DNA from: a virus | Lineage: Duplodnaviria; Caudoviricetes | DNA: 64,000 bases | Virus record (IMG/VR): IMGVR_UViG_3300005841_000939 | Strand: one strand, 5' to 3' | Part shown: one piece after another, positions 25,996 to 55,804 of the stretch | Position numbering within the stretch: position 1 is the first letter of the stretch | Layout of the letters: each line of letters starts with the position of its first letter | The notes under the pieces: model-generated | The model's input: only the letters and a program-made list of their open reading frames with translations | Told to the model about the DNA's origin: nothing | Databases searched by the model: none | Made by a program: the position numbers and the translations under genes

Positions 25996-26892
25996 ATGAA
26001 ATGTAATGTATGTAATAAAATTTTTGATAATTTTAGAAAACTTTCTAAGCATATCAGGGATAATCATAAAGAATTTTCAATTCAAAAATATTACGATACT
26101 TTTGTAAAAAAGGAAAAAGAAGGTTTATGTCCAATATGCAACGCTCCAACAAATTTTGCATCTATATCTAAAGGATATCATTTAATTTGCTCATCGCGTA
26201 AATGTGCATGCACATTTAACAGAGACAAATTAAGAAAAAATCCAGAAAAATTTAATTTATTTAAAGAAAAAGTATCTAAAAATTTAAAAAACATGTGGAA
26301 ATTTAAAGATAATTCTTTAAGAGTATCAAAAACAACAAAAACTAGGAATAAATGGGTTGAAACTTTATCAGATGATGAACGATCTGAAATTTTTGGATGG
26401 TTAAATAAATTATCACCAGAAGAAAAATCAATAAAATGCAAAGAGTTATTAGATAAAACATTGTTTAAATGGTGGAAAAATGCATCAGATGAACAAAAGC
26501 AACAAACATATAAAAAAATTGTAGAAACAAAAATTAAAAACGGAACATGTCTACCCGAATCAGAAGAATATAATTATTTAAATTACAAAAAACAAGTTAG
26601 AAAACTATCTGAACAAAATTACAAAAAATATAAGGAATTTATAAACCCAAACAACTTAATACGTTCAAGAAAAATGCAACTTGATCATCGTGTTAGCATA
26701 TTTAATGGATTTATTTTAGGTATACCAAAAGAAATCATTGCAAGTCCATATAATTTAGAACTTTTAGATGGATATAAAAATAATCAAAAACACAAAAACA
26801 ATTCTATTTCAATTGAGGAATTATGTCAAAATTTCAAAAAAGTATATTCATCCCAACAAATCCAAAAAAATACAAAGGAAAAACTCCGGTAA
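25996..26892 (+). mobile_element. Putative free-standing HNH homing endonuclease with Zn-finger modules
   Basis: N-terminal C2H2 finger (CNVC...HIRDNH), a CPIC...CSSRKC module, and C-terminal LDHRVS...NLELL...NNQKH HNH-like motif. Very Lys/Asn- and AT-rich; overlaps gp4 by 70 nt. Confidence 0.6.
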
Positions 26893-27266
26893 TAGCAAGA
26901 AGTTCCTGGGAAACTAAATTCATGCATTTCTTGGATTCCAACGCTAATGTATTGGAATGGTCAAGTGAAAGTTTGGCAATACCTTATATCAATCCTTTTA
27001 CAGGAAGATGGTCAAGATACTTCCCTGACTTTGTAATTAAATACAAAGATAATAAGGGTGTAGAAAAATTTGAAATAATTGAAGTGAAACCAATGAAGCA
27101 AACCATTGCTCCTACAGTTTCTAGAGGAAAATCTAAAAAGACTGTCCTAACAGAAAATAAAACTTGGATTGTTAATAATGCTAAATGGGCATCAACAGTA
27201 GAATTCTGTAAAAAGCATGGTTATGCATTCAGAATTATTACCGAGAATGATTTATTTTTTAAGTAA
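26823..27266 (+). CDS. gp4: Head completion nuclease
   Basis: PTNPKKYKG, RSSWETKFMHFLD, WSSE...IPY, RYFPDF, IEVKPMKQT. Confidence 0.92.
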   Translation: MSKFQKSIFIPTNPKKYKGKTPVIARSSWETKFMHFLDSNANVLEWSSESLAIPYINPFTGRWSRYFPDFVIKYKDNKGVEKFEIIEVKPMKQTIAPTVSRGKSKKTVLTENKTWIVNNAKWASTVEFCKKHGYAFRIITENDLFFK

Positions 27267-44482: not shown

Positions 44483-45511
44483 ATGGCTGAATCAAAGAAA
44501 CTGCTTAACTTTCCCTCAGATAAGAATGGGTGTGGTTTCTATCGCACAATTATCCCTTTGGGATATTTGAGTGCAAAACTTGAATGGGATACAACATTTA
44601 TGTATCAATTCGTTTTTGATTTAAATCTTGTTCGCATGTCAGATTGGATCAGATTTCAACGTCAATGTACTGATAATCAAATGCGTTGTATTTGGGAATA
44701 CCGTAATTGTATTGATAAGACAGGTGGAAAATCTAGATTAGCATATGAATTAGATGACTTGGTACATGGAATTGAACCGCATAACGTTTTAGCTTACCAA
44801 TTCTATACACCAAAACGTAGAGAAAATGTTGTCAACATCATGAAAATGTCTAATGTTGTAACCTTTTCAACTCCATTTTTGAAGGATTTTTATCAACAAA
44901 ATTTTGGTATTAATCATTCAGTTGTAATTCCAAACTTTTTGCCAAAGTTCTTATGGAATCCTACATTTACTGATAAATCAGTGGGTGGTAAAAAGCCAAC
45001 TGTAGTTTGGGCTGGATCCGCATCGCATTGTGGTCCTGGTGGCGACTTAGAATTCATGATTCCTATGATTGAAGCAACCGTTGATGAATTTGATTGGCTG
45101 TTTATTGGCGTTGTACCTGAAAAGTTGAAAGGTAAAGTTCGCTTTATGCCATGGGTCAACTTTTGGGAATATCCAAGCATGATGCAAACCGTTCGTGCTG
45201 ACTGCGCTATTGCTCCAATTACAGACACAATTTTTAATATGGCTAAGAGTGATCTTAAATATAAAGAATTCGCTGCAATGAATATTCCTATCATTTGTTC
45301 AAGTATTGGAAATGGTAAAGGTCCATATGATTTGGCAAATGCTCCTTTGCTTGTTCAAAATGATCCTGATGCGTTTTATACAAAAATCAAGGAAGTAACT
45401 GAAAATGCTGCTCTTAAAGCAGATGTTTTAGCAAAACAGAGAGCGTACGTTGAACAAAATTGGTTTGAGAATCAATCCTCAATTGACTTATATGATCAAA
45501 CTTATCGTTGA
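44483..45511 (+). CDS. GT-B-fold glycosyltransferase
   Basis: SDKNGCGFYR..P, YELDDLVH, VTFSTPFL, WAGSASH, IAPI..TIFNMAKSDLKYKEF...IPIICS. Confidence 0.8.
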   Translation: MAESKKLLNFPSDKNGCGFYRTIIPLGYLSAKLEWDTTFMYQFVFDLNLVRMSDWIRFQRQCTDNQMRCIWEYRNCIDKTGGKSRLAYELDDLVHGIEPHNVLAYQFYTPKRRENVVNIMKMSNVVTFSTPFLKDFYQQNFGINHSVVIPNFLPKFLWNPTFTDKSVGGKKPTVVWAGSASHCGPGGDLEFMIPMIEATVDEFDWLFIGVVPEKLKGKVRFMPWVNFWEYPSMMQTVRADCAIAPITDTIFNMAKSDLKYKEFAAMNIPIICSSIGNGKGPYDLANAPLLVQNDPDAFYTKIKEVTENAALKADVLAKQRAYVEQNWFENQSSIDLYDQTYR

Positions 45512-45537
45512 TTGATCTAAAAATCCAACTACAATTG

Positions 45538-45570
45538 AATCCAACTTTACAATAGGTTGGGTTTTTTGTT
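45538..45570 (+). terminator. Intrinsic terminator-like hairpin
   Basis: AATCCAAC...GTTGGGTT followed by TTTTGTT, between the two GT genes. Confidence 0.55.
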
Positions 45571-46956
45571 ATGCGTATTGGTTTTTTAATATCTGATCAA
45601 CATTTTGGCGTTTGTGGTGGTATAGGTCAATTCGCTAAGAGTTTTTGTGAAATGGCTATTCGCCAAGGTTGGGTTGTTGATTTTATTGTTGATAAACCAA
45701 TTAGAAAACGTGAAGGTTCATTAGAAGATACTTTTGAAGCACATCAATTTTTTTATCCAACCAAGCCATTGTCATATGGGACTCACGCAAGCTATTTCCA
45801 GTTTGGTGATTCAATAAATCAAGAAAAAATCATAAATTTCAGAGATTCGGCAGTAAATGCATTGACTCATAATATTTACAATGTCTTTGTTGTAAATACT
45901 CCTGAAGGATTACCAGCATTACATACCCTTTGGGTACATAAACATGTTCCTATTGTATATTACACTCATATTGAAAATATGGTGTTCTTTGATAGTGATC
46001 GTAACGACACATTTCTTGATTCATTTAATCAACAAGTAACCAATTGGTTTACATTGGAGGGTGTTACTGTTGGTACACAGACTGAACAAAATAGAAAAAA
46101 CATTCTAGCAAAATATCCAAAAGCACGCGTGTTATCTTTGCCAATGTTTGTTCCTGAACAAGAGCTTTTGAAAAATAAAGAAACAAAACGTGAAGGTGTG
46201 TTATTCATCGGTAGACACGAACAAAGAAAAAATCCAACATTATTCATAAAAACATTAGTTGATATTAAGAAAAAATATGGTGTTGAATTACTTGCTAAAG
46301 TAATGACACGAGGAACGCATAAAGAAAAGTGGGAAGAAGCATTTGCTGAAGCAGGACTTAAAAACTATATATTGAAATTTGATATTATTGGTAAAGAAAA
46401 AGTTGATTTCATTCAAAGCGCAAAGGTAGCATTCCATCCTTCATTAAGAGAAAGTTTCGGATTTAGTGCCTTTGAAACTCTGCATTCATGCCGAACTATA
46501 TTGATTGAAGAGTTTGCTTGGTGGGAAAATTTTAAAGATTGGCCTAACTTGACTGTTTCTACCAAAGAAAAGGTAGTAGATGATGTTTTTACTCTTTATA
46601 ATTTAGATGCATATGATGCAGAAGAAATTAACAAATATTCAAAAAAAGTATATGACAATACACGATTGGAATGGGGTATGTTTTTTGAAGGTATTTTCAT
46701 GCAAGAAATACTCAATGAATCAGCAAACACATATATGGGAAGAAAAAATCAATTAACTGAATTGATGGATAATAACGATCAAATTAAAGTTTCGGAATAT
46801 TATGCAAATGGATTCCGACAAGATTTATTTGATAAGCTCATGCAGACAAGCAAGAAAAAATATAAGATATTCAATAAAAAAGGATATACTATATTATCAA
46901 ATAAAGACGCGATACGGTATGAAAATAATAATTCAATAACAGATTTGTTTTCTTAA
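45571..46956 (+). CDS. GT4-like glycosyltransferase
   Basis: GGIGQFA N-terminal loop, FIGRHEQRKNP, E-x7-E motif RESFGFSAFETL. Confidence 0.8.
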   Translation: MRIGFLISDQHFGVCGGIGQFAKSFCEMAIRQGWVVDFIVDKPIRKREGSLEDTFEAHQFFYPTKPLSYGTHASYFQFGDSINQEKIINFRDSAVNALTHNIYNVFVVNTPEGLPALHTLWVHKHVPIVYYTHIENMVFFDSDRNDTFLDSFNQQVTNWFTLEGVTVGTQTEQNRKNILAKYPKARVLSLPMFVPEQELLKNKETKREGVLFIGRHEQRKNPTLFIKTLVDIKKKYGVELLAKVMTRGTHKEKWEEAFAEAGLKNYILKFDIIGKEKVDFIQSAKVAFHPSLRESFGFSAFETLHSCRTILIEEFAWWENFKDWPNLTVSTKEKVVDDVFTLYNLDAYDAEEINKYSKKVYDNTRLEWGMFFEGIFMQEILNESANTYMGRKNQLTELMDNNDQIKVSEYYANGFRQDLFDKLMQTSKKKYKIFNKKGYTILSNKDAIRYENNNSITDLFS

Positions 46957-46959
46957 TTC

Positions 46960-46987
46960 TTGACGTGGAATTACAACAATTTAGAAT
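46960..46987 (+). promoter_or_regulatory. Candidate sigma70-type early promoter for the folE operon (TTGACG-N16-TAGAAT)
   Basis: Near-consensus boxes; -10 box ends 9 nt upstream of the folE ATG. Confidence 0.55.
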
Positions 46988-46996
46988 GGATAACAT

Positions 46997-47620
46997 ATGA
47001 CGAAAATTAAAGCAAATGGTAATCAGCCTCTTACTGAAAAAGAATTGGCCAAAAAACAAAAGAAAATGGAAAAGGTCTTTCAAGACTTCTTTAAAGTTCT
47101 TGATTTTGATACAGAAAATGATCCTAATATTAAAGAGTCTTCACAACGCATGGCAAAAATGTGGGTTAGAGAACTCCTTGAAGGTAATTTCTCCGAAGAA
47201 CCAAAAATAACTACTTTTCCAAATCAACAAAACACAGACCAAATGATTATTTCTGGTCCTATCAAGGTTGATTCTGTATGTAGCCACCATGGAATTACAA
47301 TTGCCGGTTCATGCTATATCGCATACATTCCAGGTGACGAAGTTATTGGAATTTCAAAATTCTCAAGAATAGTTCGTTTCTTTAGTCGTCGTATGCAAAT
47401 TCAAGAAGAAATGACACAACAAATTTCTGATTACATACAAAACTTGATGAAGCCTAAGGGAATTATAGTGTTCATGAAGTGTCGTCACTTTTGCGAAATT
47501 GCCCGTGGTGTTAGAGAAGAAAATATCTGGATGACTACTTCATCCGTACAAGGTGTTTTTAAAGAAAACGCATCAGCAAGACAGGAATTCTTTAACTTGA
47601 TTAATGTAGGTAACAAGTAA
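46997..47620 (+). CDS. folE: GTP cyclohydrolase I
   Basis: RMAKMW, Zn ligands CSHH, GISKFSRIVRFFSRRMQIQE, HFCEIARGV. Confidence 0.95.
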   Translation: MTKIKANGNQPLTEKELAKKQKKMEKVFQDFFKVLDFDTENDPNIKESSQRMAKMWVRELLEGNFSEEPKITTFPNQQNTDQMIISGPIKVDSVCSHHGITIAGSCYIAYIPGDEVIGISKFSRIVRFFSRRMQIQEEMTQQISDYIQNLMKPKGIIVFMKCRHFCEIARGVREENIWMTTSSVQGVFKENASARQEFFNLINVGNK

Positions 47621-47624
47621 TACA

Positions 47625-48926
47625 ATGGAATACCAATCAGATTTCATTTTTTTCCCTGCCATTTCAATTGCGACACATACGCAAATCATGAAGGCAGATT
47701 TCAAAGTTAAGGGTAAATCTCCAAGATTTTACTTAAATAGTCTTACAGATGATAAGAAGCTATTTAATCATCCTTATATTTTGACATCAGCAGCGCACAA
47801 CTTCAAGAATATAAATTTCATGAAGGATATTGGTGTTAATGATGTGAATAAAGATGTAAATCTGATTTTTGGTGACTCGGGTGGATTCCAAATCAAGACT
47901 GGAGTAATCAAAGATACACCAGAAATAAAGGATAAACTTTATACATGGATGGAAAACAATGTAACAATGGCACCAATCATTGATCATCCACCTACATATA
48001 ATGGAGATAAAGTATCAGAAAAAGATTTTGATGAATATTTGAATAAAACAAAAGAAAATATTGAATATCTTCAAAAGCGTCCAACAAAAAACAAGATTAA
48101 TTGGTTGAATGTTACCCAGGGCGTTCTTTATGAAGACCGTAAGAAGTGGTACGATGCTGTAAAGGACTATAACTTAGATGGTTGGGCTATGGGATCTTTA
48201 AGAAAAGATGCCAGAGTAATTCTAAATGCATTTGCTGTGTTCTTAGAAGGTGGTGAACTGGAAAAGAAAGATAGATGTAAACACATTCACTTCTTTGGTA
48301 TCACTGCAACCAAATACATGCCATTGATGATTTACATCAAGCATAAAATGCATCAAGCTGGATACAAAATTAACGTATCAATGGATAGTTCCTACGCAAC
48401 ACAAAATGGTGGTTGGGGAAAATTCCTATTCTCGCATAACGATTTTGAAGCCATAAATTCAATTGATAATAAAGAGTCATATTTGAGTTCAGAAAAATCA
48501 AAAGGATTCCTATCTTACCATTTGAGTAACAGACTTATTGGAAAGGTTAATGGTGATGTAAATCTTCCATGCTATTGCCCTGTATGTACTGGTATTAAAC
48601 TAAAAGATATTTTAAATGACAATGCGTTAAAAACTGTTGGTGAGTCGTATTACTATAATGTTGTTCAATCACATAACGTGTTCGTTTTAAAAGAATATGT
48701 GAATAGTCTTCAAAATATTATTTACACAAATTCATATGACCTGTACAGTAGCGCATTTAGAAGTTATGATGTATATTTGTTCAAATTAATTGATAAAATG
48801 TTTGATAATCCAAAACAAGCAAGTTATTTAATTGCAAGTGAAGGTGAAAGACTTTCAGATAGAGAAGAACAAGATAAAGCCCAAGAAAAAGAGGGTGAAG
48901 ATATGAAAAATGAGTTCTTTGAATGA
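47625..48926 (+). CDS. tRNA-guanine transglycosylase / DpdA-like base-exchange enzyme
   Basis: GDSGGFQ (catalytic Asp), IIDHP, NVTQG, GWAMGSL, IHFFGI, SMDSS (second Asp), Zn site CYCPVC...H. Confidence 0.85.
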   Translation: MEYQSDFIFFPAISIATHTQIMKADFKVKGKSPRFYLNSLTDDKKLFNHPYILTSAAHNFKNINFMKDIGVNDVNKDVNLIFGDSGGFQIKTGVIKDTPEIKDKLYTWMENNVTMAPIIDHPPTYNGDKVSEKDFDEYLNKTKENIEYLQKRPTKNKINWLNVTQGVLYEDRKKWYDAVKDYNLDGWAMGSLRKDARVILNAFAVFLEGGELEKKDRCKHIHFFGITATKYMPLMIYIKHKMHQAGYKINVSMDSSYATQNGGWGKFLFSHNDFEAINSIDNKESYLSSEKSKGFLSYHLSNRLIGKVNGDVNLPCYCPVCTGIKLKDILNDNALKTVGESYYYNVVQSHNVFVLKEYVNSLQNIIYTNSYDLYSSAFRSYDVYLFKLIDKMFDNPKQASYLIASEGERLSDREEQDKAQEKEGEDMKNEFFE

Positions 48927-49843
48927 ATATGTTATTACATACTACAGGAAAAAGAGACATTGAAGAAATAGAGTGGTGTCCAACATTAGTTAAACCTGAT
49001 GAAATTATGATAAAAACTTGGGCATGTGGTGTATGTCGTAGCGATGTTGCTGCATATGCTGGATGGGAAAAACCAATGCCTTTTGGTCAACAAGGACATG
49101 AGGGGCTTGGGACTGTTACTGCTATTGGTTCAGATATTTTAAATGTAAAAATTGGTGATTATGTTGCAACATGGTCAGATCCTGCATATTCTGATTTTTA
49201 TAAAGCAAAAGTTGGTGAATATGTAAAAGTTCCAGAATTGAAAAAGGATTATATTCTTCAACCATCAGCATGTGCGATCAATATTGCTAGAAAGTTTTTA
49301 GCACAAGCAAGATATGGATGGCCAATTTTAATTATTGGTTCAGGATTTATGAGCTTGATTATTGGACAATACTTAAAAATACTTGGTAGAGAAGTAGTTG
49401 TGGCAGGGTCATCACATAAGTCTGAATGGGATAAAATAGGTATACCATTAACATCAGTGAATGAACTTGTTGAAAGTGGAAAGAAGTGGAAAGGTATCAT
49501 TGATTTAAGTAGTAAAGCTGAAAATTTTGATTTAATCAGTAAACATCTTGGTGATGTTGAAGCAGTTATTTGTTATGCTGCAACACCATTTACTCCTGTA
49601 ACTACAAATTTCTTTGATTCGTGCTGGAATTGTCATACATTCATCATGCCAAGTCCAAGAAATAAAGATTTCAATGACATGATGAGATTGACCGCAGAAT
49701 TAATTTCTTTAAACAGAATAACAGTTGGCAATTATTGGACGCAAGAATACAATAGATCATCTATGACCGAAGTTAAACAAGCATTTGAAGACGGAGTCAA
49801 TCGTCCAAGTGGTTATTTACGCGGCTACATTCGCTGGAACTAA
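48923..49843 (+). CDS. Zn-dependent medium-chain dehydrogenase (MDR)
   Basis: CGVCRSD and GHEGLG catalytic Zn motifs, IIGSGFM nucleotide-binding loop; lacks the 4-Cys structural Zn lobe. Confidence 0.85.
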   Translation: MNMLLHTTGKRDIEEIEWCPTLVKPDEIMIKTWACGVCRSDVAAYAGWEKPMPFGQQGHEGLGTVTAIGSDILNVKIGDYVATWSDPAYSDFYKAKVGEYVKVPELKKDYILQPSACAINIARKFLAQARYGWPILIIGSGFMSLIIGQYLKILGREVVVAGSSHKSEWDKIGIPLTSVNELVESGKKWKGIIDLSSKAENFDLISKHLGDVEAVICYAATPFTPVTTNFFDSCWNCHTFIMPSPRNKDFNDMMRLTAELISLNRITVGNYWTQEYNRSSMTEVKQAFEDGVNRPSGYLRGYIRWN

Positions 49844-49845
49844 TT

Positions 49846-50913
49846 ATGAACGTTTATATTATGGCCCTTGAGGCAATTGAAAGTCGTTATACCTGGTATT
49901 GGGAAACAGAATTAGAAAAACGTATTAATGAATATATTAAAAACGATATAACTCTTAATGAAAAAAATATAAAAGTAATAACTTTAAAAGGTGATGATGA
50001 AGATAATGAAGTAGTAGCTACCCAAGGTGCATTTCTAAATTTCACAACAACAAATGCATGGAAAAATAGTCAGATGAATAAGCTAATTGGCTTATTTAAG
50101 AGTGGTGAAATAAAACCAAAAGATAAAATAATATTTCCTGATGCATGGCATCCTGGTATAATTCAAGTTAGATACATCAGTGAATTGACTAAAGTACCTG
50201 TATCAATTTATTCACTTTGGCATGCTGGTAGTTATGATTATCAAGATTTTTTAGGTAGAGAAATTCAAGATAAAAGTTGGGTAAGACACGCAGAAGCAGC
50301 ATTCTTTGATGCATCTGATTACAATTTATTTGCTACTAGATTTCATAAATCAATGTTTATGCAAACATTTAAATATAGAGTAAATAAGAATAAAGCGCAT
50401 ATTGTAGGATTTCCATTTCAATATATAAAAGATGTTAAGCAACCTGAAGTAATTAAAGAAAACATTATTCTGTTTCCACATAGAATAAGTTCCGAAAAAC
50501 AACCACAAGTATTTAAAGAATTGGCAAAGCGTATTCCAGAATATCAATTTATAATTTGCCAAGAAAAGAATTTATCTAAAACGCAATATGGTAATTTGCT
50601 TGCTAGATCAAAAATGGTATTCTCTGCGAATCTACAAGAGACACTTGGTATTTCATGCTATGAAGGTGCAGTAAACGGAGCATTACCCTTCGTTCCTGAT
50701 AGATTATCATATAAAGAAATGTATCCAAAATGGTGTCAGTATGAAGGATATTTAACTGGCGGTAGTTTGGAATCACGATATTTAGATATTTTATCATTTA
50801 TGGTGAAGGATATGCTCGCAAATTATGATGAACATGCAAAGAAATTGCCAAGTTTGGTGAAACGTCTAGATCGTTTCTTTACAATGGATAAAATGTTACA
50901 GGTTATATTTTAA
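49846..50913 (+). CDS. GT4-like glycosyltransferase
   Basis: FPDAWHPG, WHAGSYD, FPHRISSEKQPQVF, E-x7-E motif QETLGISCYEG, PFVPDRLSY. Confidence 0.8.
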   Translation: MNVYIMALEAIESRYTWYWETELEKRINEYIKNDITLNEKNIKVITLKGDDEDNEVVATQGAFLNFTTTNAWKNSQMNKLIGLFKSGEIKPKDKIIFPDAWHPGIIQVRYISELTKVPVSIYSLWHAGSYDYQDFLGREIQDKSWVRHAEAAFFDASDYNLFATRFHKSMFMQTFKYRVNKNKAHIVGFPFQYIKDVKQPEVIKENIILFPHRISSEKQPQVFKELAKRIPEYQFIICQEKNLSKTQYGNLLARSKMVFSANLQETLGISCYEGAVNGALPFVPDRLSYKEMYPKWCQYEGYLTGGSLESRYLDILSFMVKDMLANYDEHAKKLPSLVKRLDRFFTMDKMLQVIF

Positions 50914-50917
50914 TAAT

Positions 50918-51094
50918 ATGAAAATAAAATATGATCTTTCTTATAAACATGTAGCTGGTGTTGGACCACTACCTCATATAACATTGGATTTGGATTTTAC
51001 TATAGAAGAAAAACCAATCTTGATGGAAGTGTTAGAAGAAATTAAAACCGCAACAATCATTAAGAGAAAAAATGAAAATAACAGTAAAAACTAG
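50918..51094 (+). CDS. Small hypothetical protein (58 aa)
   Basis: Below the ORF-track cutoff. MKIKYDLSYKHVAGVGPLPH...KNENNSKN* fills the gap in the operon. Confidence 0.5.
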   Translation: MKIKYDLSYKHVAGVGPLPHITLDLDFTIEEKPILMEVLEEIKTATIIKRKNENNSKN

Positions 51095-51425
51095 TTTCCC
51101 AGGTATTCATCGTTGGAAAGATGCTCCCGAACAAGTGGATTTTCTACGAAGTTTCCACAGACATATTTTTAACATTTCTTTTTCTCTTGAAGTGACTCAT
51201 GCTGATAGAGAGCTTGAATTCTTTGTATTAAAATCAGCAGTAGATTCATATATTGATGCTAAGTGGTCAAATTATAAAAATAACCATAATTTGAAATTTT
51301 TTGGAGATGATTCTTGTGAATCTCTTGCGTTAGCTATAAAAACTTTTCTTGAAACTGAATACGGTTCTGGTAGAAAAGTATCTGTAAAAGTTCAAGAAGA
51401 TGATGAAAATTATGGTGAAGTATGA
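51072..51425 (+). CDS. Divergent QueD/PTPS-like T-fold protein
   Basis: GIHRW ... HRHIF (three His, compare QueD AAH...HGH), DRELEF, SCESLA, VKVQEDDEN; lies in an operon with folE. Confidence 0.65.
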   Translation: MKITVKTSFPGIHRWKDAPEQVDFLRSFHRHIFNISFSLEVTHADRELEFFVLKSAVDSYIDAKWSNYKNNHNLKFFGDDSCESLALAIKTFLETEYGSGRKVSVKVQEDDENYGEV

Positions 51426-51880
51426 ATGAAAGTAAATTAATTACAGCCTTTGATATGGATGGCGTTATTGTATCCGATATTAATATGGATTATAATAATC
51501 CCGAGCAACTTGAAAAAATAAAACAAATTCGTATGGTTTGTGAACCAATTTTCAGACCACATGGCACATTTGTTATCATTACCGGTCGTCCAGAAAATGA
51601 GCATGATCAGACTTGGCAATGGCTGGAAATGTATAATGTAAAACCACAAAGAGTTTTCTTTAAACCAGAGCAATACGATTTCTCAAAACAATCAATAATT
51701 GATCATAAGGCAAGAACTATTCGTGAGTTGAATAGAACATTATACTATGGGTATGTCACAAAATTTGTTGAAAGTGATAAAACTCAAGTTGAAGGTATTT
51801 CTAAGCAAGTTGATATTCCTGTAATTCATTTTCCAGTATTTTCAAGCAATGCGTTAGTACATGCAGGATGGTGGTACTAA
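51422..51880 (+). CDS. HAD-superfamily phosphatase
   Basis: Motif I FDMDGV, motif II ITGR, Lys in DHKA, acidic motif FVESD. Confidence 0.8.
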   Translation: MNESKLITAFDMDGVIVSDINMDYNNPEQLEKIKQIRMVCEPIFRPHGTFVIITGRPENEHDQTWQWLEMYNVKPQRVFFKPEQYDFSKQSIIDHKARTIRELNRTLYYGYVTKFVESDKTQVEGISKQVDIPVIHFPVFSSNALVHAGWWY

Positions 51881-52168
51881 ATGCCAAAATATACACCTGA
51901 TGAACTTAATAAATTGCTTTTTAATAAAGTAAATCAAGCTATTAGTTTACATGCAATAGGTGATAATAAAAAGTCCGCAATTACATTAGCAAGTGCTGCC
52001 AGAATTCTTGATCGTTGGGATCGTTTAGTCAAAAATCCACCAGTAAAGAAAGAAAAACATATTGAAGAAAGTGTTGTAGAAAATGATCCAGGACGACGGC
52101 AGAGAGAAGGAACTGATAAAAAAGTTCAAACTGAAACAAGCTCCGAGTCGGAAACGTCAGGATCTTGA
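51881..52168 (+). CDS. Hypothetical protein
   Basis: Starts immediately after the HAD stop; the 3' 86 nt overlap the next ORF. Confidence 0.55.
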   Translation: MPKYTPDELNKLLFNKVNQAISLHAIGDNKKSAITLASAARILDRWDRLVKNPPVKKEKHIEESVVENDPGRRQREGTDKKVQTETSSESETSGS

Positions 52169-52730
52169 CGCTTTTTTGCATTATAAGCGTATCAGTTATG
52201 ATTTTGAATTAAAATCAACAACAGTTGGTGATGTTTCAACTGCAAGTCCAGTGACAATTGATCACATTAAAAAATGGCGTCATATACATTGGTTAATTGG
52301 AATTTATGATGAAACCACTGTTAAATTAAAACATGTTTTATATGCTAGTCCTGATATGATGACCGATTGGTTGAATGCACAAGAAGAAGATATTCAACGC
52401 GGTCTAACAATTTCACATGCGCTAGCTGGAAAAATTGATTACGACCTACTTTTTAAAATATTTGGAGAGAAACCTTTCTATACATTTGAAGAAGCTAAAA
52501 AGGTCTACAAGAAATTGTGGACTAAAAACGAATATATGTTGATGTCAGATATTCCTGGTGGATATTCATCAGAAACTATGTTGAAAATGTTCCAGGATCA
52601 CAACTTATCTTATATGATAAGAGGTAGCTTCTTAAATAATCCCAAGATAACGAAAAAGTATACCGATAAGTTCATTAAAATAGATGGTGATTTTGCTAGA
52701 ACACTGCGTAAAATCATTAGTCCAACGTAA
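52083..52730 (+). CDS. PD-(D/E)xK nuclease resembling a type II restriction endonuclease
   Basis: QDDGRE (N-terminal Glu), DLDA, FELKST catalytic pattern, HIKKW..HWLIGIY. Confidence 0.6.
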   Translation: MIQDDGREKELIKKFKLKQAPSRKRQDLDAFLHYKRISYDFELKSTTVGDVSTASPVTIDHIKKWRHIHWLIGIYDETTVKLKHVLYASPDMMTDWLNAQEEDIQRGLTISHALAGKIDYDLLFKIFGEKPFYTFEEAKKVYKKLWTKNEYMLMSDIPGGYSSETMLKMFQDHNLSYMIRGSFLNNPKITKKYTDKFIKIDGDFARTLRKIISPT

Positions 52731-53212: not shown

Positions 53213-55804
53213 ATGACCTTTTCTTCAGTATCCTTTTCACCATTCAGCACAAAAATCCATTGTTGGGAATATGATGCTCAAGGCAATAAAGTTCATATTG
53301 AAGAAAAGGCACCGTTTTACTTCTTCATGAAAAATGATGAAGGTTCTTTTACAAGTATCTTCGGTGATAAACTCAAGAAAATTGAGTTTGAAAATTATGG
53401 TAAAATGAAAGAGACGCGTGAAATGTTTAAAGCTGCCAACAGACAGCTTTTTGAATCAGATGTTGATATTCCAAATAGATTTGTATTGGATAGATATAGC
53501 AATCAAGAAATTAAGAATATACCAAAATATGACGTATTCTTTATTGACATTGAAGTTCACTCGGAAGAAGGTTTCCCTGATCCAGATTTAGCTGAACATC
53601 CTATTACTATTATTACGGTATATTCAACTAAAAAAGAAAAGCTGTATGTTTTCAGTGAAAAAGATTTTGATAGATCATTCTTACCAGAAAATGCTTGGGT
53701 TAAAATATTTGATACAGAAGAGGAACTATTAAAGTCCTTTGTCGCGTTCATTAGAAAACTTCATCCTGACTTTTTAAGTGGTTGGAATAGTAGTGGTTTT
53801 GATATTCCTTATATCATAAATCGTGCTTATAAGATAATTGGTGAAGAAGAGACGCGGAAAATGAGTCCTGTCAAATACATCAAAGAAGTTAAAAAGAAGA
53901 TGCGATTTGGTAAGGAAAAGACAACATACGAAATTGCAGGTATTAACTGCATTGACTATTTAGATTTGTATCGTAAGTATCATCAAGGTGAACAAGAATC
54001 ATTCAAACTTGGTTATATTGCAAAAGTTGAAATTGGTGAAACTAAGTTGGAATTTGAAGGTACTTTGCGCGATTTGTATTTGAAGAATTGGCAGCGATAT
54101 GTTGAATATAACGTACAAGACGTTATGATTTTGGTAAAAATTGACAAGCGTATTAAGTTCATGGATTTGATGATTGGTATTTGCTTGAATTGCCGTGTTC
54201 CATTTGAACAGTTTGATAAAACCACGCGCGTTTTGGATGGAGCATTCATTTCACGCCTAAGTACTGAGAATACCATTCTTCCAGATGTTCCTCCACAAGA
54301 CGGTAACGATCAATATGCAGGTGCTTTCGTTCGTGATCCTGATGTTGGTATGCATGATTGGGTTGTTTCATTTGACGCAACATCTCTCTATCCATCAATT
54401 ATGATTCAACATAACATTTCACCTGAAACAAAGGTAATGGTTGTACATGATCAATTTGTTCCAGATATTTTTGACGCATTAGAAGGTAAACCTGTTGATG
54501 AAGGTACATTGAATCTTTTCTGTTTTGAAAACATGAAGATGAAAGATGTTATTGCCAAAATTAAAGAAAATGAATGGACTATTGCGGCTAATGGCGCAAT
54601 TTATCGTCATGATAAAAAAGGTGTTGTCGCATCATTCGTTAAAGATTGGTTTGATAAGCGTAAATATCACAAAAAGCTCATGCAAGTAGCTCAAACTGAA
54701 GAAAACGAAGATGAAGAACAATTGCAAAAAGGTCTTCAACAAAACTATAAGATCCTGATTAACTCAGTTTATGGATATGTTGGTAGTAAGTACAGTCGCT
54801 TATATGATCGTGATAATGCATTAGCGGTAACAATTACTGGTCAAGAAGTATTGAAGTCTGGTATGGCTGCTATTGATTTGTATTTCAAAGAGCGTTGGCC
54901 AACTACAGAGACTGGTAAGAAATTAAATGCGCAGTCAATTCCATCAACTTTGATATATGGTGACACTGACTCATTGTATTTGAATATCGGAAAGGTATTG
55001 AAGTCAATCAACTATAATTGGGAAGATGCTGCAAAGACTAAAGAATTTGTAGAAAAGAAAATAGAACCTTTGCTATTCAAGATCATCAACAATGCGATGG
55101 AAATCTTGACCATGAAACGCATGAATACCAAAGATTGCAAGATTTCATTCAAACGTGAAATGATAGCACGTAGAGCAGTATTCTTGAGCAAAAAACACTA
55201 TGCTGCTTGGATCATGAAATTGGAAGAAGAAGAAGTTAAGCCAGGTTCAAAGCATGAAATTGAAGCTAAGGGCCTTGAAATGGTTAAGTCTTCAACTCCT
55301 GAAATTATTAGAGATTTCATGAGAAATTATATTCTCCACTTTCTAAAAACTGCTGATTTAAAAGAATCAAACAATACGATTAGCGCAATTTATGATAAAT
55401 TTAAAGCAAGTGAATTCGCCAAGATTGCAAAAATCACAAACGTCAATAACATTGATGAATATACTGGATCAGATGGTAATCCAATTAAAGGTACACCAGG
55501 ACACGTAAAAGCAACTATACATTACAATAACCTTTTAATAAGAAATGGTTGTGCAAATGACTACCAAAAGATTTTTGAAGGTGATAAAGTTAAATTGGTG
55601 TACTTAAAAAATAGTAATCCATATGGTATTGATGCTATTACATTTAAGGACGTTATTCCAACAGAGTTTGGCTTGGATGGGTACGTAGATTATGATATAA
55701 TGTGGGAGAAAGTATTCATTGAACCAATCCGTCAATTCTATGATGTAATGCGTTGGGAAATGCCAGCTTTCGATAAAGAAAACATAGACGATTTATTTTG
55801 TTAA
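53213..55804 (+). CDS. gp43: Family B DNA polymerase
   Basis: Exo I DIEV, GWNSSGFDIPY, YNVQDV, DATSLYPS, KILINSVYG, YGDTDS, KGLEMVKSSTP. Confidence 0.98.
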   Translation: MTFSSVSFSPFSTKIHCWEYDAQGNKVHIEEKAPFYFFMKNDEGSFTSIFGDKLKKIEFENYGKMKETREMFKAANRQLFESDVDIPNRFVLDRYSNQEIKNIPKYDVFFIDIEVHSEEGFPDPDLAEHPITIITVYSTKKEKLYVFSEKDFDRSFLPENAWVKIFDTEEELLKSFVAFIRKLHPDFLSGWNSSGFDIPYIINRAYKIIGEEETRKMSPVKYIKEVKKKMRFGKEKTTYEIAGINCIDYLDLYRKYHQGEQESFKLGYIAKVEIGETKLEFEGTLRDLYLKNWQRYVEYNVQDVMILVKIDKRIKFMDLMIGICLNCRVPFEQFDKTTRVLDGAFISRLSTENTILPDVPPQDGNDQYAGAFVRDPDVGMHDWVVSFDATSLYPSIMIQHNISPETKVMVVHDQFVPDIFDALEGKPVDEGTLNLFCFENMKMKDVIAKIKENEWTIAANGAIYRHDKKGVVASFVKDWFDKRKYHKKLMQVAQTEENEDEEQLQKGLQQNYKILINSVYGYVGSKYSRLYDRDNALAVTITGQEVLKSGMAAIDLYFKERWPTTETGKKLNAQSIPSTLIYGDTDSLYLNIGKVLKSINYNWEDAAKTKEFVEKKIEPLLFKIINNAMEILTMKRMNTKDCKISFKREMIARRAVFLSKKHYAAWIMKLEEEEVKPGSKHEIEAKGLEMVKSSTPEIIRDFMRNYILHFLKTADLKESNNTISAIYDKFKASEFAKIAKITNVNNIDEYTGSDGNPIKGTPGHVKATIHYNNLLIRNGCANDYQKIFEGDKVKLVYLKNSNPYGIDAITFKDVIPTEFGLDGYVDYDIMWEKVFIEPIRQFYDVMRWEMPAFDKENIDDLFC

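Follow-up and report, generated by a model that had tools for sequence, protein, structure and literature searches.

7-Deazaguanine modifications of DNA and glycosylation of modified pyrimidines have both been described before. In phage phiST, whose DNA contains 2′-deoxy-7-deazaguanosine (dDG), the protein DpdL is proposed to act as a decarboxylase converting 7-carboxy-7-deazaguanine to 7-deazaguanine; DpdL is defined by a change of the QueD motif CxxxHGH to LxxxHRHxF (PMC10516641). Expression of DpdA and DpdL from Acidovorax phage ACP17 in E. coli gave no dDG, and other enzymes were considered possibly necessary; a glycosyltransferase (GT) is nowhere mentioned in that study (PMC10516641). The DNA of the therapy-candidate phage PA5oct is reported to withstand restriction enzymes with G in GA or GG contexts and to be open to attack by nucleases that recognise hypermodified DNA; that work did not identify the base (PMC12191111). 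Here we analyse a gene island at positions 44483-52730 of the viral record IMGVR_UViG_3300005841_000939 (Duplodnaviria; Caudoviricetes), of which a stretch of 64,000 nucleotides (“the window” below) was available. As a preliminary description of this DNA had observed, and as the present analysis confirms, the island combines genes of 7-deazaguanine metabolism with GT genes.

The island may represent, in compact form, a module common among phages by which guanine in their DNA gives way to a base of the 7-deazaguanine type and this exchange is coupled to glycosylation; we regard the case for this reading as about evenly balanced. It is supported by the linkage of the GT to the other genes, the DpdL signature, the catalytic set of an enzyme of the tRNA-guanine transglycosylase (TGT) superfamily, the GT4 fold with its EX7E motif, the nucleotide-sugar genes nearby and the restriction resistance of PA5oct. 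Taken broadly, the sugar-decorated guanine replacement put forward in the preliminary description appears well supported by genomics. The literature searched offers no description of a glycosylated deazaguanine, in line with what the preliminary description had stated for DNA, or of a role for the GT family concerned; recent papers on glycosylated phage DNA concern pyrimidines. If correct, the reading would provide the first sugar-decorated purine analogue in any genome, explain why E. coli formed no dDG when given only DpdA and DpdL, and offer a candidate chemistry for the G modification of PA5oct. It bears on restriction, on CRISPR and glycosylase-based defences and on sequencing artefacts, and the question can be tested directly, several carriers being in culture.

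Relation to described systems

The dDG system of phiST and the ACP17 system tested in PMC10516641 share with the window FolE, DpdL with the LxxxHRHxF signature, a TGT-superfamily enzyme encoded next to the DNA polymerase and a cassette without QueC. The gene order in ACP17, DpdA-GT-DpdL, is also that of the window, whereas phiST has a short DpdA3 (259 aa) and no GT. The window has two GT4 enzymes, a dehydrogenase of the medium-chain dehydrogenase/reductase (MDR) type and a HAD phosphatase in addition, and it has no local QueD or QueE. The GT gene of ACP17 lies between those for DpdA and DpdL. The failed production of dDG from these two proteins is compatible with a missing partner.

The PA5oct family (Wroclawvirus) has the order PolB-PCNA-TGT-like-GT-DpdL-...-PRT-QueE, PRT standing for phosphoribosyltransferase. 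Its GT is 43-44% identical to that of the window and its TGT-like protein 24% identical; a DpdL-like gene follows the GT, and a homologue of the MDR dehydrogenase is found in the genome. PA5oct is, however, a jumbo phage of another family, with a TGT-like protein of about 540 aa that has no CxCxxC, with PRT and QueE inside the module and with a deviating DpdL motif (LGYPHFHYF).

Two further systems offer points of comparison for the sugar transfer. The alpha- and beta-glucosyltransferases of T4, which belong to families GT72 and GT63 in CAZy, act on 5-hydroxymethylcytosine. Like the enzyme proposed here, they are phage GT-B proteins that decorate a non-canonical DNA base after replication from a nucleotide sugar, but they belong to other GT families, and the acceptor in the window phage would be a purine analogue. 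QTMAN (GTDC1), the tRNA-queuosine alpha-mannosyltransferase and a precedent for the enzyme proposed here, belongs to GT4 and adds its sugar to a derivative of 7-deazaguanine in a nucleic acid, animal tRNA; its acceptor is the cyclopentenediol of queuosine, and its QTMAN_N domain was found in none of 28 members of the window’s GT family.

Linkage of the glycosyltransferase to DpdL and the TGT-like gene

The conserved GT of the island is a 355-aa protein (49846-50913). When IMG/VR was scanned with an alignment of its family, at least 589 stretches were recovered, as against one locus in a scan with the single protein. ORFs (open reading frames) were clustered for 80 loci from the alignment scan plus locus L019 (81 in all), together with reference loci, and linkage was counted at the 51 loci where the GT is flanked on each side by at least 5 kb. 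A TGT-like gene accompanies the GT at 50 of these 51 loci, DpdL at 47, PolB (within 10 kb) at 47, FolE at 46, a PRT gene at 44 and QueE (within 10 kb) at 43; GT and DpdL lie a median of about 1 kb apart. The gene-neighbourhood survey suggested in the preliminary description is thus strongly positive, and the 355-aa GT is an almost obligate partner of DpdL and the DpdA-like enzyme. With at least several hundred phages, among them several cultured groups, carrying the module, the notion that the system is a novelty of one phage does not hold.

The PolB genes at the surveyed loci fall into at least three groups with less than 40% identity. Cultured carriers comprise the PA5oct family, ACP17, Synechococcus phage BUCT-ZZ01, Xanthomonas phages X1 and BUDD, Burkholderia phage BCSR5 and Sinorhizobium phage Phosso. 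The linkage is kept despite differing gene order in ACP17, X1, BUCT-ZZ01 and the PA5oct family. In Phosso, the GT, DpdL, FolE and QueE are present and no TGT-family gene occurs in the stretch read.

Accessory genes vary among the loci. The family of the window’s MDR dehydrogenase lies between the TGT-like gene and DpdL at 25 of the 81 loci, usually beside an oxidoreductase of the GFO/IDH/MocA type, and phages of the PA5oct type carry a 33% identical homologue paired with GFO/IDH/MocA elsewhere in the genome. Other variable neighbours are UDP-glucose/GDP-mannose dehydrogenases, DegT aminotransferases and HIT proteins; the variable neighbours are a nucleotide-sugar tailoring repertoire. In the window itself, the dehydrogenase (306 aa, Zn-dependent, 48923-49843) matches ADH_N at 3e-11, and a second GT4 enzyme (461 aa, 45571-46956) matches Pfam Glycos_transf_1 with 37.8 bits. 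The latter has no counterpart in the T4-like relatives and is 37% identical to a 447-aa protein encoded between FolE and the TGT-like gene of BUCT-ZZ01. Both proteins thus recur inside such modules, as their earlier assignment to the system implied. A further family of about 177 aa (e.g., L060:8445-8978) lies between the TGT-like gene and DpdL at 60 of the 81 loci and is not in the window; it has no Pfam match and no profile link to QueD, DpdL, HAD or PRT.

The DpdL-type protein

The 117-aa protein encoded at 51072-51425 had been labelled QueD-like. It is indeed a T-fold relative of QueD, but signature and homology place it with DpdL and not with QueD. Residues 25-33 read LRSFHRHIF and fit LxxxHRHxF, a pattern found in 72 of 73 DpdL-family members located next to the GT. 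The catalytic Cys of PTPS and QueD, four residues before HxH, is replaced by Leu. The protein matches phiST DpdL (tblastn E 2e-14) and is 28% identical to ACP17 DpdL (BLASTP E 5e-10); it has no Pfam match. By these sequence features it is a DpdL-type protein, predicted to decarboxylate 7-carboxy-7-deazaguanine.

The TGT-like enzyme

The putative exchange enzyme (433 aa, 47625-48926) scores 26.7 bits against Pfam TGT, just above the cut-off of 26.3. Comparison with PDB, by single sequence and by profile, gave marginal matches only, and the fold was settled by structure search. The model (predicted local distance difference test, pLDDT, 87.2) is a (beta/alpha)8 TGT barrel that Foldseek aligns with human, archaeal and bacterial TGT at E of about 1e-9 and TM scores of 0.5-0.6; the matches shown are all tRNA-guanine transglycosylases. 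The catalytic set D84 (DSGGFQ), D120 (IIDHP), D254 (SMDSS) and H350 is invariant in 38 sequences; it includes a base-binding Asp, and SMDSS is the nucleophile motif. The clade of the window enzyme has a Zn site, CYCPVC...H (CxCxxC...H). At the surveyed loci CxCxxC is kept in 5 of 71 members of the TGT-like family, the Zn site being lost in most. The close family is small, with 19 proteins of 44-77% identity; wider relatives, of roughly 500 aa and about 25% identity, include the PA5oct protein.

The comparison with DpdA subfamilies covered phiST DpdA3 and the ACP17 protein annotated “dpdA”. In hhalign the window enzyme matches DpdA3 weakly (14.6% probability) and the 424-aa ACP17 protein encoded beside DpdL at 96.3% probability (E 1.6e-9). 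The 424-aa protein is presumably the one expressed as ACP17 dpdA in PMC10516641. Judged by its context, with the gene beside PolB, no tRNA gene in the window and PA5oct DNA reported as modified at G, the window enzyme may act on DNA. An insertion follows the nucleophile motif (about 29 residues, low confidence; residues 272-292, 48438-48500) and is shared by the two closest relatives (P0002 and P0003) only.

The core glycosyltransferase

Assignment of the 355-aa protein to the GT-B/GT4 fold can be made with confidence from the predicted structure (pLDDT 91.9), whose best PDB matches are the retaining GT4 enzymes BshA, GlgM and MshA. The EX7E motif (E265-x7-E273) is invariant in the family, as are dozens of other residues. 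Against Pfam Glycos_transf_1 the protein scores 17.8 bits, under the gathering score of 26.4; of 28 family members, 24 match the same profile with E values no higher than 1, the lowest being 1.6e-7. The family has at least 7996 metagenomic homologues at E up to 1e-3, many of them 43-62% identical, and is 95-100% viral in Atlas clusters.

Resemblance to QTMAN was also seen. This enzyme ranks second among Swiss-Prot models compared with the 355-aa GT (E 2e-10; 13% identity), by a small margin over generic GT4 enzymes, and is among the Atlas structural neighbours. Tetrahydrobiopterin glucosyltransferase occupies rank 49 among the structural matches.

Cassette exchange among sister phages

Near-syntenic relatives of the window share gp47, gp46, a sigma factor, a 342-aa GT-B protein, FolE, the TGT-like gene, a variable cassette, a PvuII-like nuclease and PolB. 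In L011 and L006 (TGT 77% identical) the cassette consists of dehydrogenase, GT, DpdL and HAD, as in the window, and in L003 of GT and DpdL. In L010 (TGT 73% identical), L004 and L005 it consists of HAD, a PRT-like protein and QueC, with a methyltransferase in addition in L005 and a GT2 in L004 (window 47625-52730 compared with L010:6202-10156, L004:10001-14657 and L005:10001-15302). The GT thus travels with DpdL, and the pair alternates with QueC. This exchange looks like modular diversification of a DNA modification.

The TGT-like proteins of the two types of sister phages are 72% identical; among seven sequences they do not cluster by cassette, and no alignment column separates them. This suggests that a small base or shared precursor is inserted, with tailoring after insertion. 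Being drawn from seven sequences, the placing of sugar addition after base insertion is a weak inference.

The same comparison removes two genes from the argument for sugar decoration. The HAD phosphatase (152 aa, PNKP type, 51422-51880), identified by its DxDGV motif and by HAD_PNKP proteins among its Atlas neighbours, has homologues adjoining the TGT-like gene in the QueC-type phages L010, L004 and L005. The 342-aa GT-B (44483-45511; phrog_7162 glycosyltransferase, 1.8e-32) is 58-66% identical in L004, L005, L010 and L012, including carriers of the QueC cassette. Because both are present with either cassette type, neither is evidence for sugar decoration, and membership of the 342-aa GT-B in the module is doubtful. 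Streptomyces, Arthrobacter and rV5-like phages have distant homologues of it that bear the annotation glycosyltransferase.

Two observations associate HAD with PRT. In L010 (7545-8448) the HAD phosphatase gene is directly followed by the PRT-like gene, and Atlas structure neighbours include bacterial proteins of about 318 aa with a PRT domain, aligned to the HAD-like protein at a TM score of 0.76. Pairs of PRT and HAD are reminiscent of deazapurine nucleoside pathways. Inteins occur at two places in L004 (1-3295 and 16060-20861): one, with a homing-endonuclease insertion, interrupts PolB, and another, which has a LAGLIDADG domain, is located in a large gene upstream.

Proposed pathway and alternatives

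On these gene identities, folds, catalytic motifs and tight linkage, we infer an order of steps in which the base is the sugar acceptor. FolE would start the pathway from GTP, and QueD and QueE, encoded outside the window, would lead to 7-carboxy-7-deazaguanine, which DpdL would turn into 7-deazaguanine or a compound closely derived from it. The TGT-fold enzyme, a relative of ACP17 “DpdA”, would exchange this deazaguanine for guanine in double-stranded DNA. The conserved GT4, here joined by a second GT4, would then attach to the new base a sugar drawn from a nucleotide-sugar donor, most likely after insertion, and the MDR dehydrogenase could tailor the sugar or a side chain. That phages of this kind have DNA with a glycosylated 7-deazaguanine, produced by a DpdA-like enzyme, DpdL and a viral GT4 and varied in its sugar by dehydrogenases, aminotransferases or a second GT, is a tentative proposal whose chances we put slightly short of even. 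The restriction behaviour of PA5oct provides independent support for such a module acting on DNA.

Several points weigh against the pathway as drawn. A sugar on a deazaguanine is not known from chemical data, and 7-deazaguanine has no hydroxyl to take one. The enzymatic activity of DpdL is a prediction. The best structural matches of the 355-aa GT use small-molecule acceptors and are not DNA glucosyltransferases, the T4 alpha- and beta-enzymes lying outside the 50 best PDB matches; a free base or a pterin is therefore a possible acceptor. Likeness to QTMAN is at the level of the fold only, QTMAN_N (PF12038) being found in none of 28 family members at E up to 1. Finally, searches of the 64-kb window by tblastn with several references detected no QueD, QueE, QueC or PRT. 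The absence of QueE and QueC had already been recorded in the preliminary description; QueD and QueE would therefore have to be supplied from elsewhere in the genome or by the host.

The lack of an obvious acceptor hydroxyl also favours another scheme, which we think unlikely though credible: the module would make plain 7-deazaguanine DNA (dDG or similar), as in phiST, and the GTs would act on another base, on a protein or on a host or virion glycan, their linkage to replication genes reflecting expression timing. phiST indeed has DpdL and dDG without such a GT, the 342-aa GT-B is retained in the QueC-type sister phages, and the window phage has further glycan genes (RmlB- and RmlD-like, double GT2). 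Yet the GT co-occurs with the TGT-like gene at 98% of loci and with DpdL at 92%, their adjacency is kept though gene order is shuffled across deep lineages, and where sister phages swap to QueC, the GT goes with DpdL. A queuosine-like base placed by the TGT-like enzyme in host or phage tRNA and then glycosylated as in animals would account for the structural matches of that enzyme, all of them tRNA-guanine transglycosylases among those shown, and would have in QTMAN a GT4 precedent on tRNA. We consider it very improbable, given that the window has no tRNA gene, that the TGT-like gene stands constantly beside DNA replication genes, that the Zn site is gone from most of the family (5 of 71 members keep CxCxxC), that the homologous ACP17 protein was treated as a DpdA (PMC10516641) and that PA5oct DNA shows restriction resistance (PMC12191111).

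Most improbable, in our estimate, is that the genes make a small soluble product rather than a DNA base, be it a glycoside of a pterin or, as in the toyocamycin and tubercidin pathways, a deazapurine nucleoside. The components needed to make biopterin glucoside do correspond to the gene set: FolE, a T-fold protein of the PTPS/QueD kind, a reductase, a GT4 enzyme and a phosphatase. The structural matches of the GT include tetrahydrobiopterin glucosyltransferase, the best of them have small-molecule acceptors, and the resemblance of PRT and HAD pairs to deazapurine nucleoside pathways points the same way. The T-fold protein, however, has lost the catalytic Cys of PTPS and QueD, QueE is present at 43 and a TGT-fold exchange enzyme at 50 of 51 loci, the module is placed between PolB/PCNA and RNase H or primase genes, and the DNA of PA5oct is itself modified at G (PMC12191111).

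Restriction sites and the PvuII-like nuclease

The sequence CAGCTG does not occur in the 64-kb window, against 8.0 occurrences expected. The window likewise has no AGATCT, CTTAAG, CACGTG or AGCGCT, and it is poor in GATATC and AAGCTT. Avoidance of several G-containing palindromes argues against complete protection of the DNA and, to that extent, against the proposed module; it fits a partial, context-specific modification better than full replacement of guanine.

A PvuII-like endonuclease gene ends the island (52083-52730, or from 52176, the start called in L009). Its product is 49-55% identical to proteins of L003, L004, L005 and L010, homologues that, including those of L004 and L005, carry PF09225, and it is conserved downstream of both cassette types. 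There is no methyltransferase gene nearby, and site avoidance in the window is not specific to the PvuII site. The idea that the nuclease and the missing CAGCTG reflect self-protection by modification was set aside, as other palindromes are equally avoided.

Genomic context

The window comes from an uncultured T4-like soil phage, with genes for gp23, gp20, RNase H, UvsY, UvsW, class I ribonucleotide reductase, gp46/gp47, PolB, UvsX and gp32 and for a sigma factor resembling gp55 and a helicase of the gp41 type. Its GC content is about 33%, its DNA occurs in rhizosphere metagenomes, and its proteins recur on contigs of up to 379,560 bases. Among the GenBank phages searched, identity to PolB does not exceed about 31%. 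No tRNA gene was found in the window, and no dCMP hydroxymethylase was seen among the ORFs scanned.

The ORFs of the island (44483-52730) all lie on the + strand, as does the family B DNA polymerase gene that follows at 53213-55804 (Pfam DNA_pol_B 9e-42). From FolE through a 95-aa ORF, junctions are gaps of 0-4 nucleotides or overlaps of 4-23 nucleotides. Gene positions and tight packing beside the polymerase are therefore as first described, and RmlB-like, RmlD-like and double-GT2 genes are likewise present elsewhere in the window. FolE (GTP cyclohydrolase I, 46997-47620) is identified by Pfam at 1e-49 and by NCBIfam folE at 173-181 bits, slightly under the equivalog cut-offs. Upstream of it, at 46960-46987 on the + strand, the sigma70-like promoter match reported earlier is present (TTGACG-16-TAGAAT, 10 of 12 positions); it is weak evidence because such matches are no commoner in the window than in shuffled sequence (45 versus 47.9).

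Two small ORFs of the island match no family. One, of 58 aa (50918-51094), is not conserved, being without counterpart in the relative L011 with its 77% identity; the other, of 95 aa and without assigned function (51881-52168), has a weak match in L011. Profile comparison linked none of three small ORFs (58, 95 and 142 aa) to the other families.

Away from the island, between the portal gene and RNase H, an ORF at 26823-27266 encodes a TnsA-like/endonuclease I-like nuclease (Pfam 3.8e-21), possibly one with a mobile or a repair function. At the end of the window, three independent shorter contigs covering the region (L016, L017 and L018) all stop near 63.4 kb, inside an RmlD-like fusion gene, suggesting that a variable or repeated stretch lies downstream.

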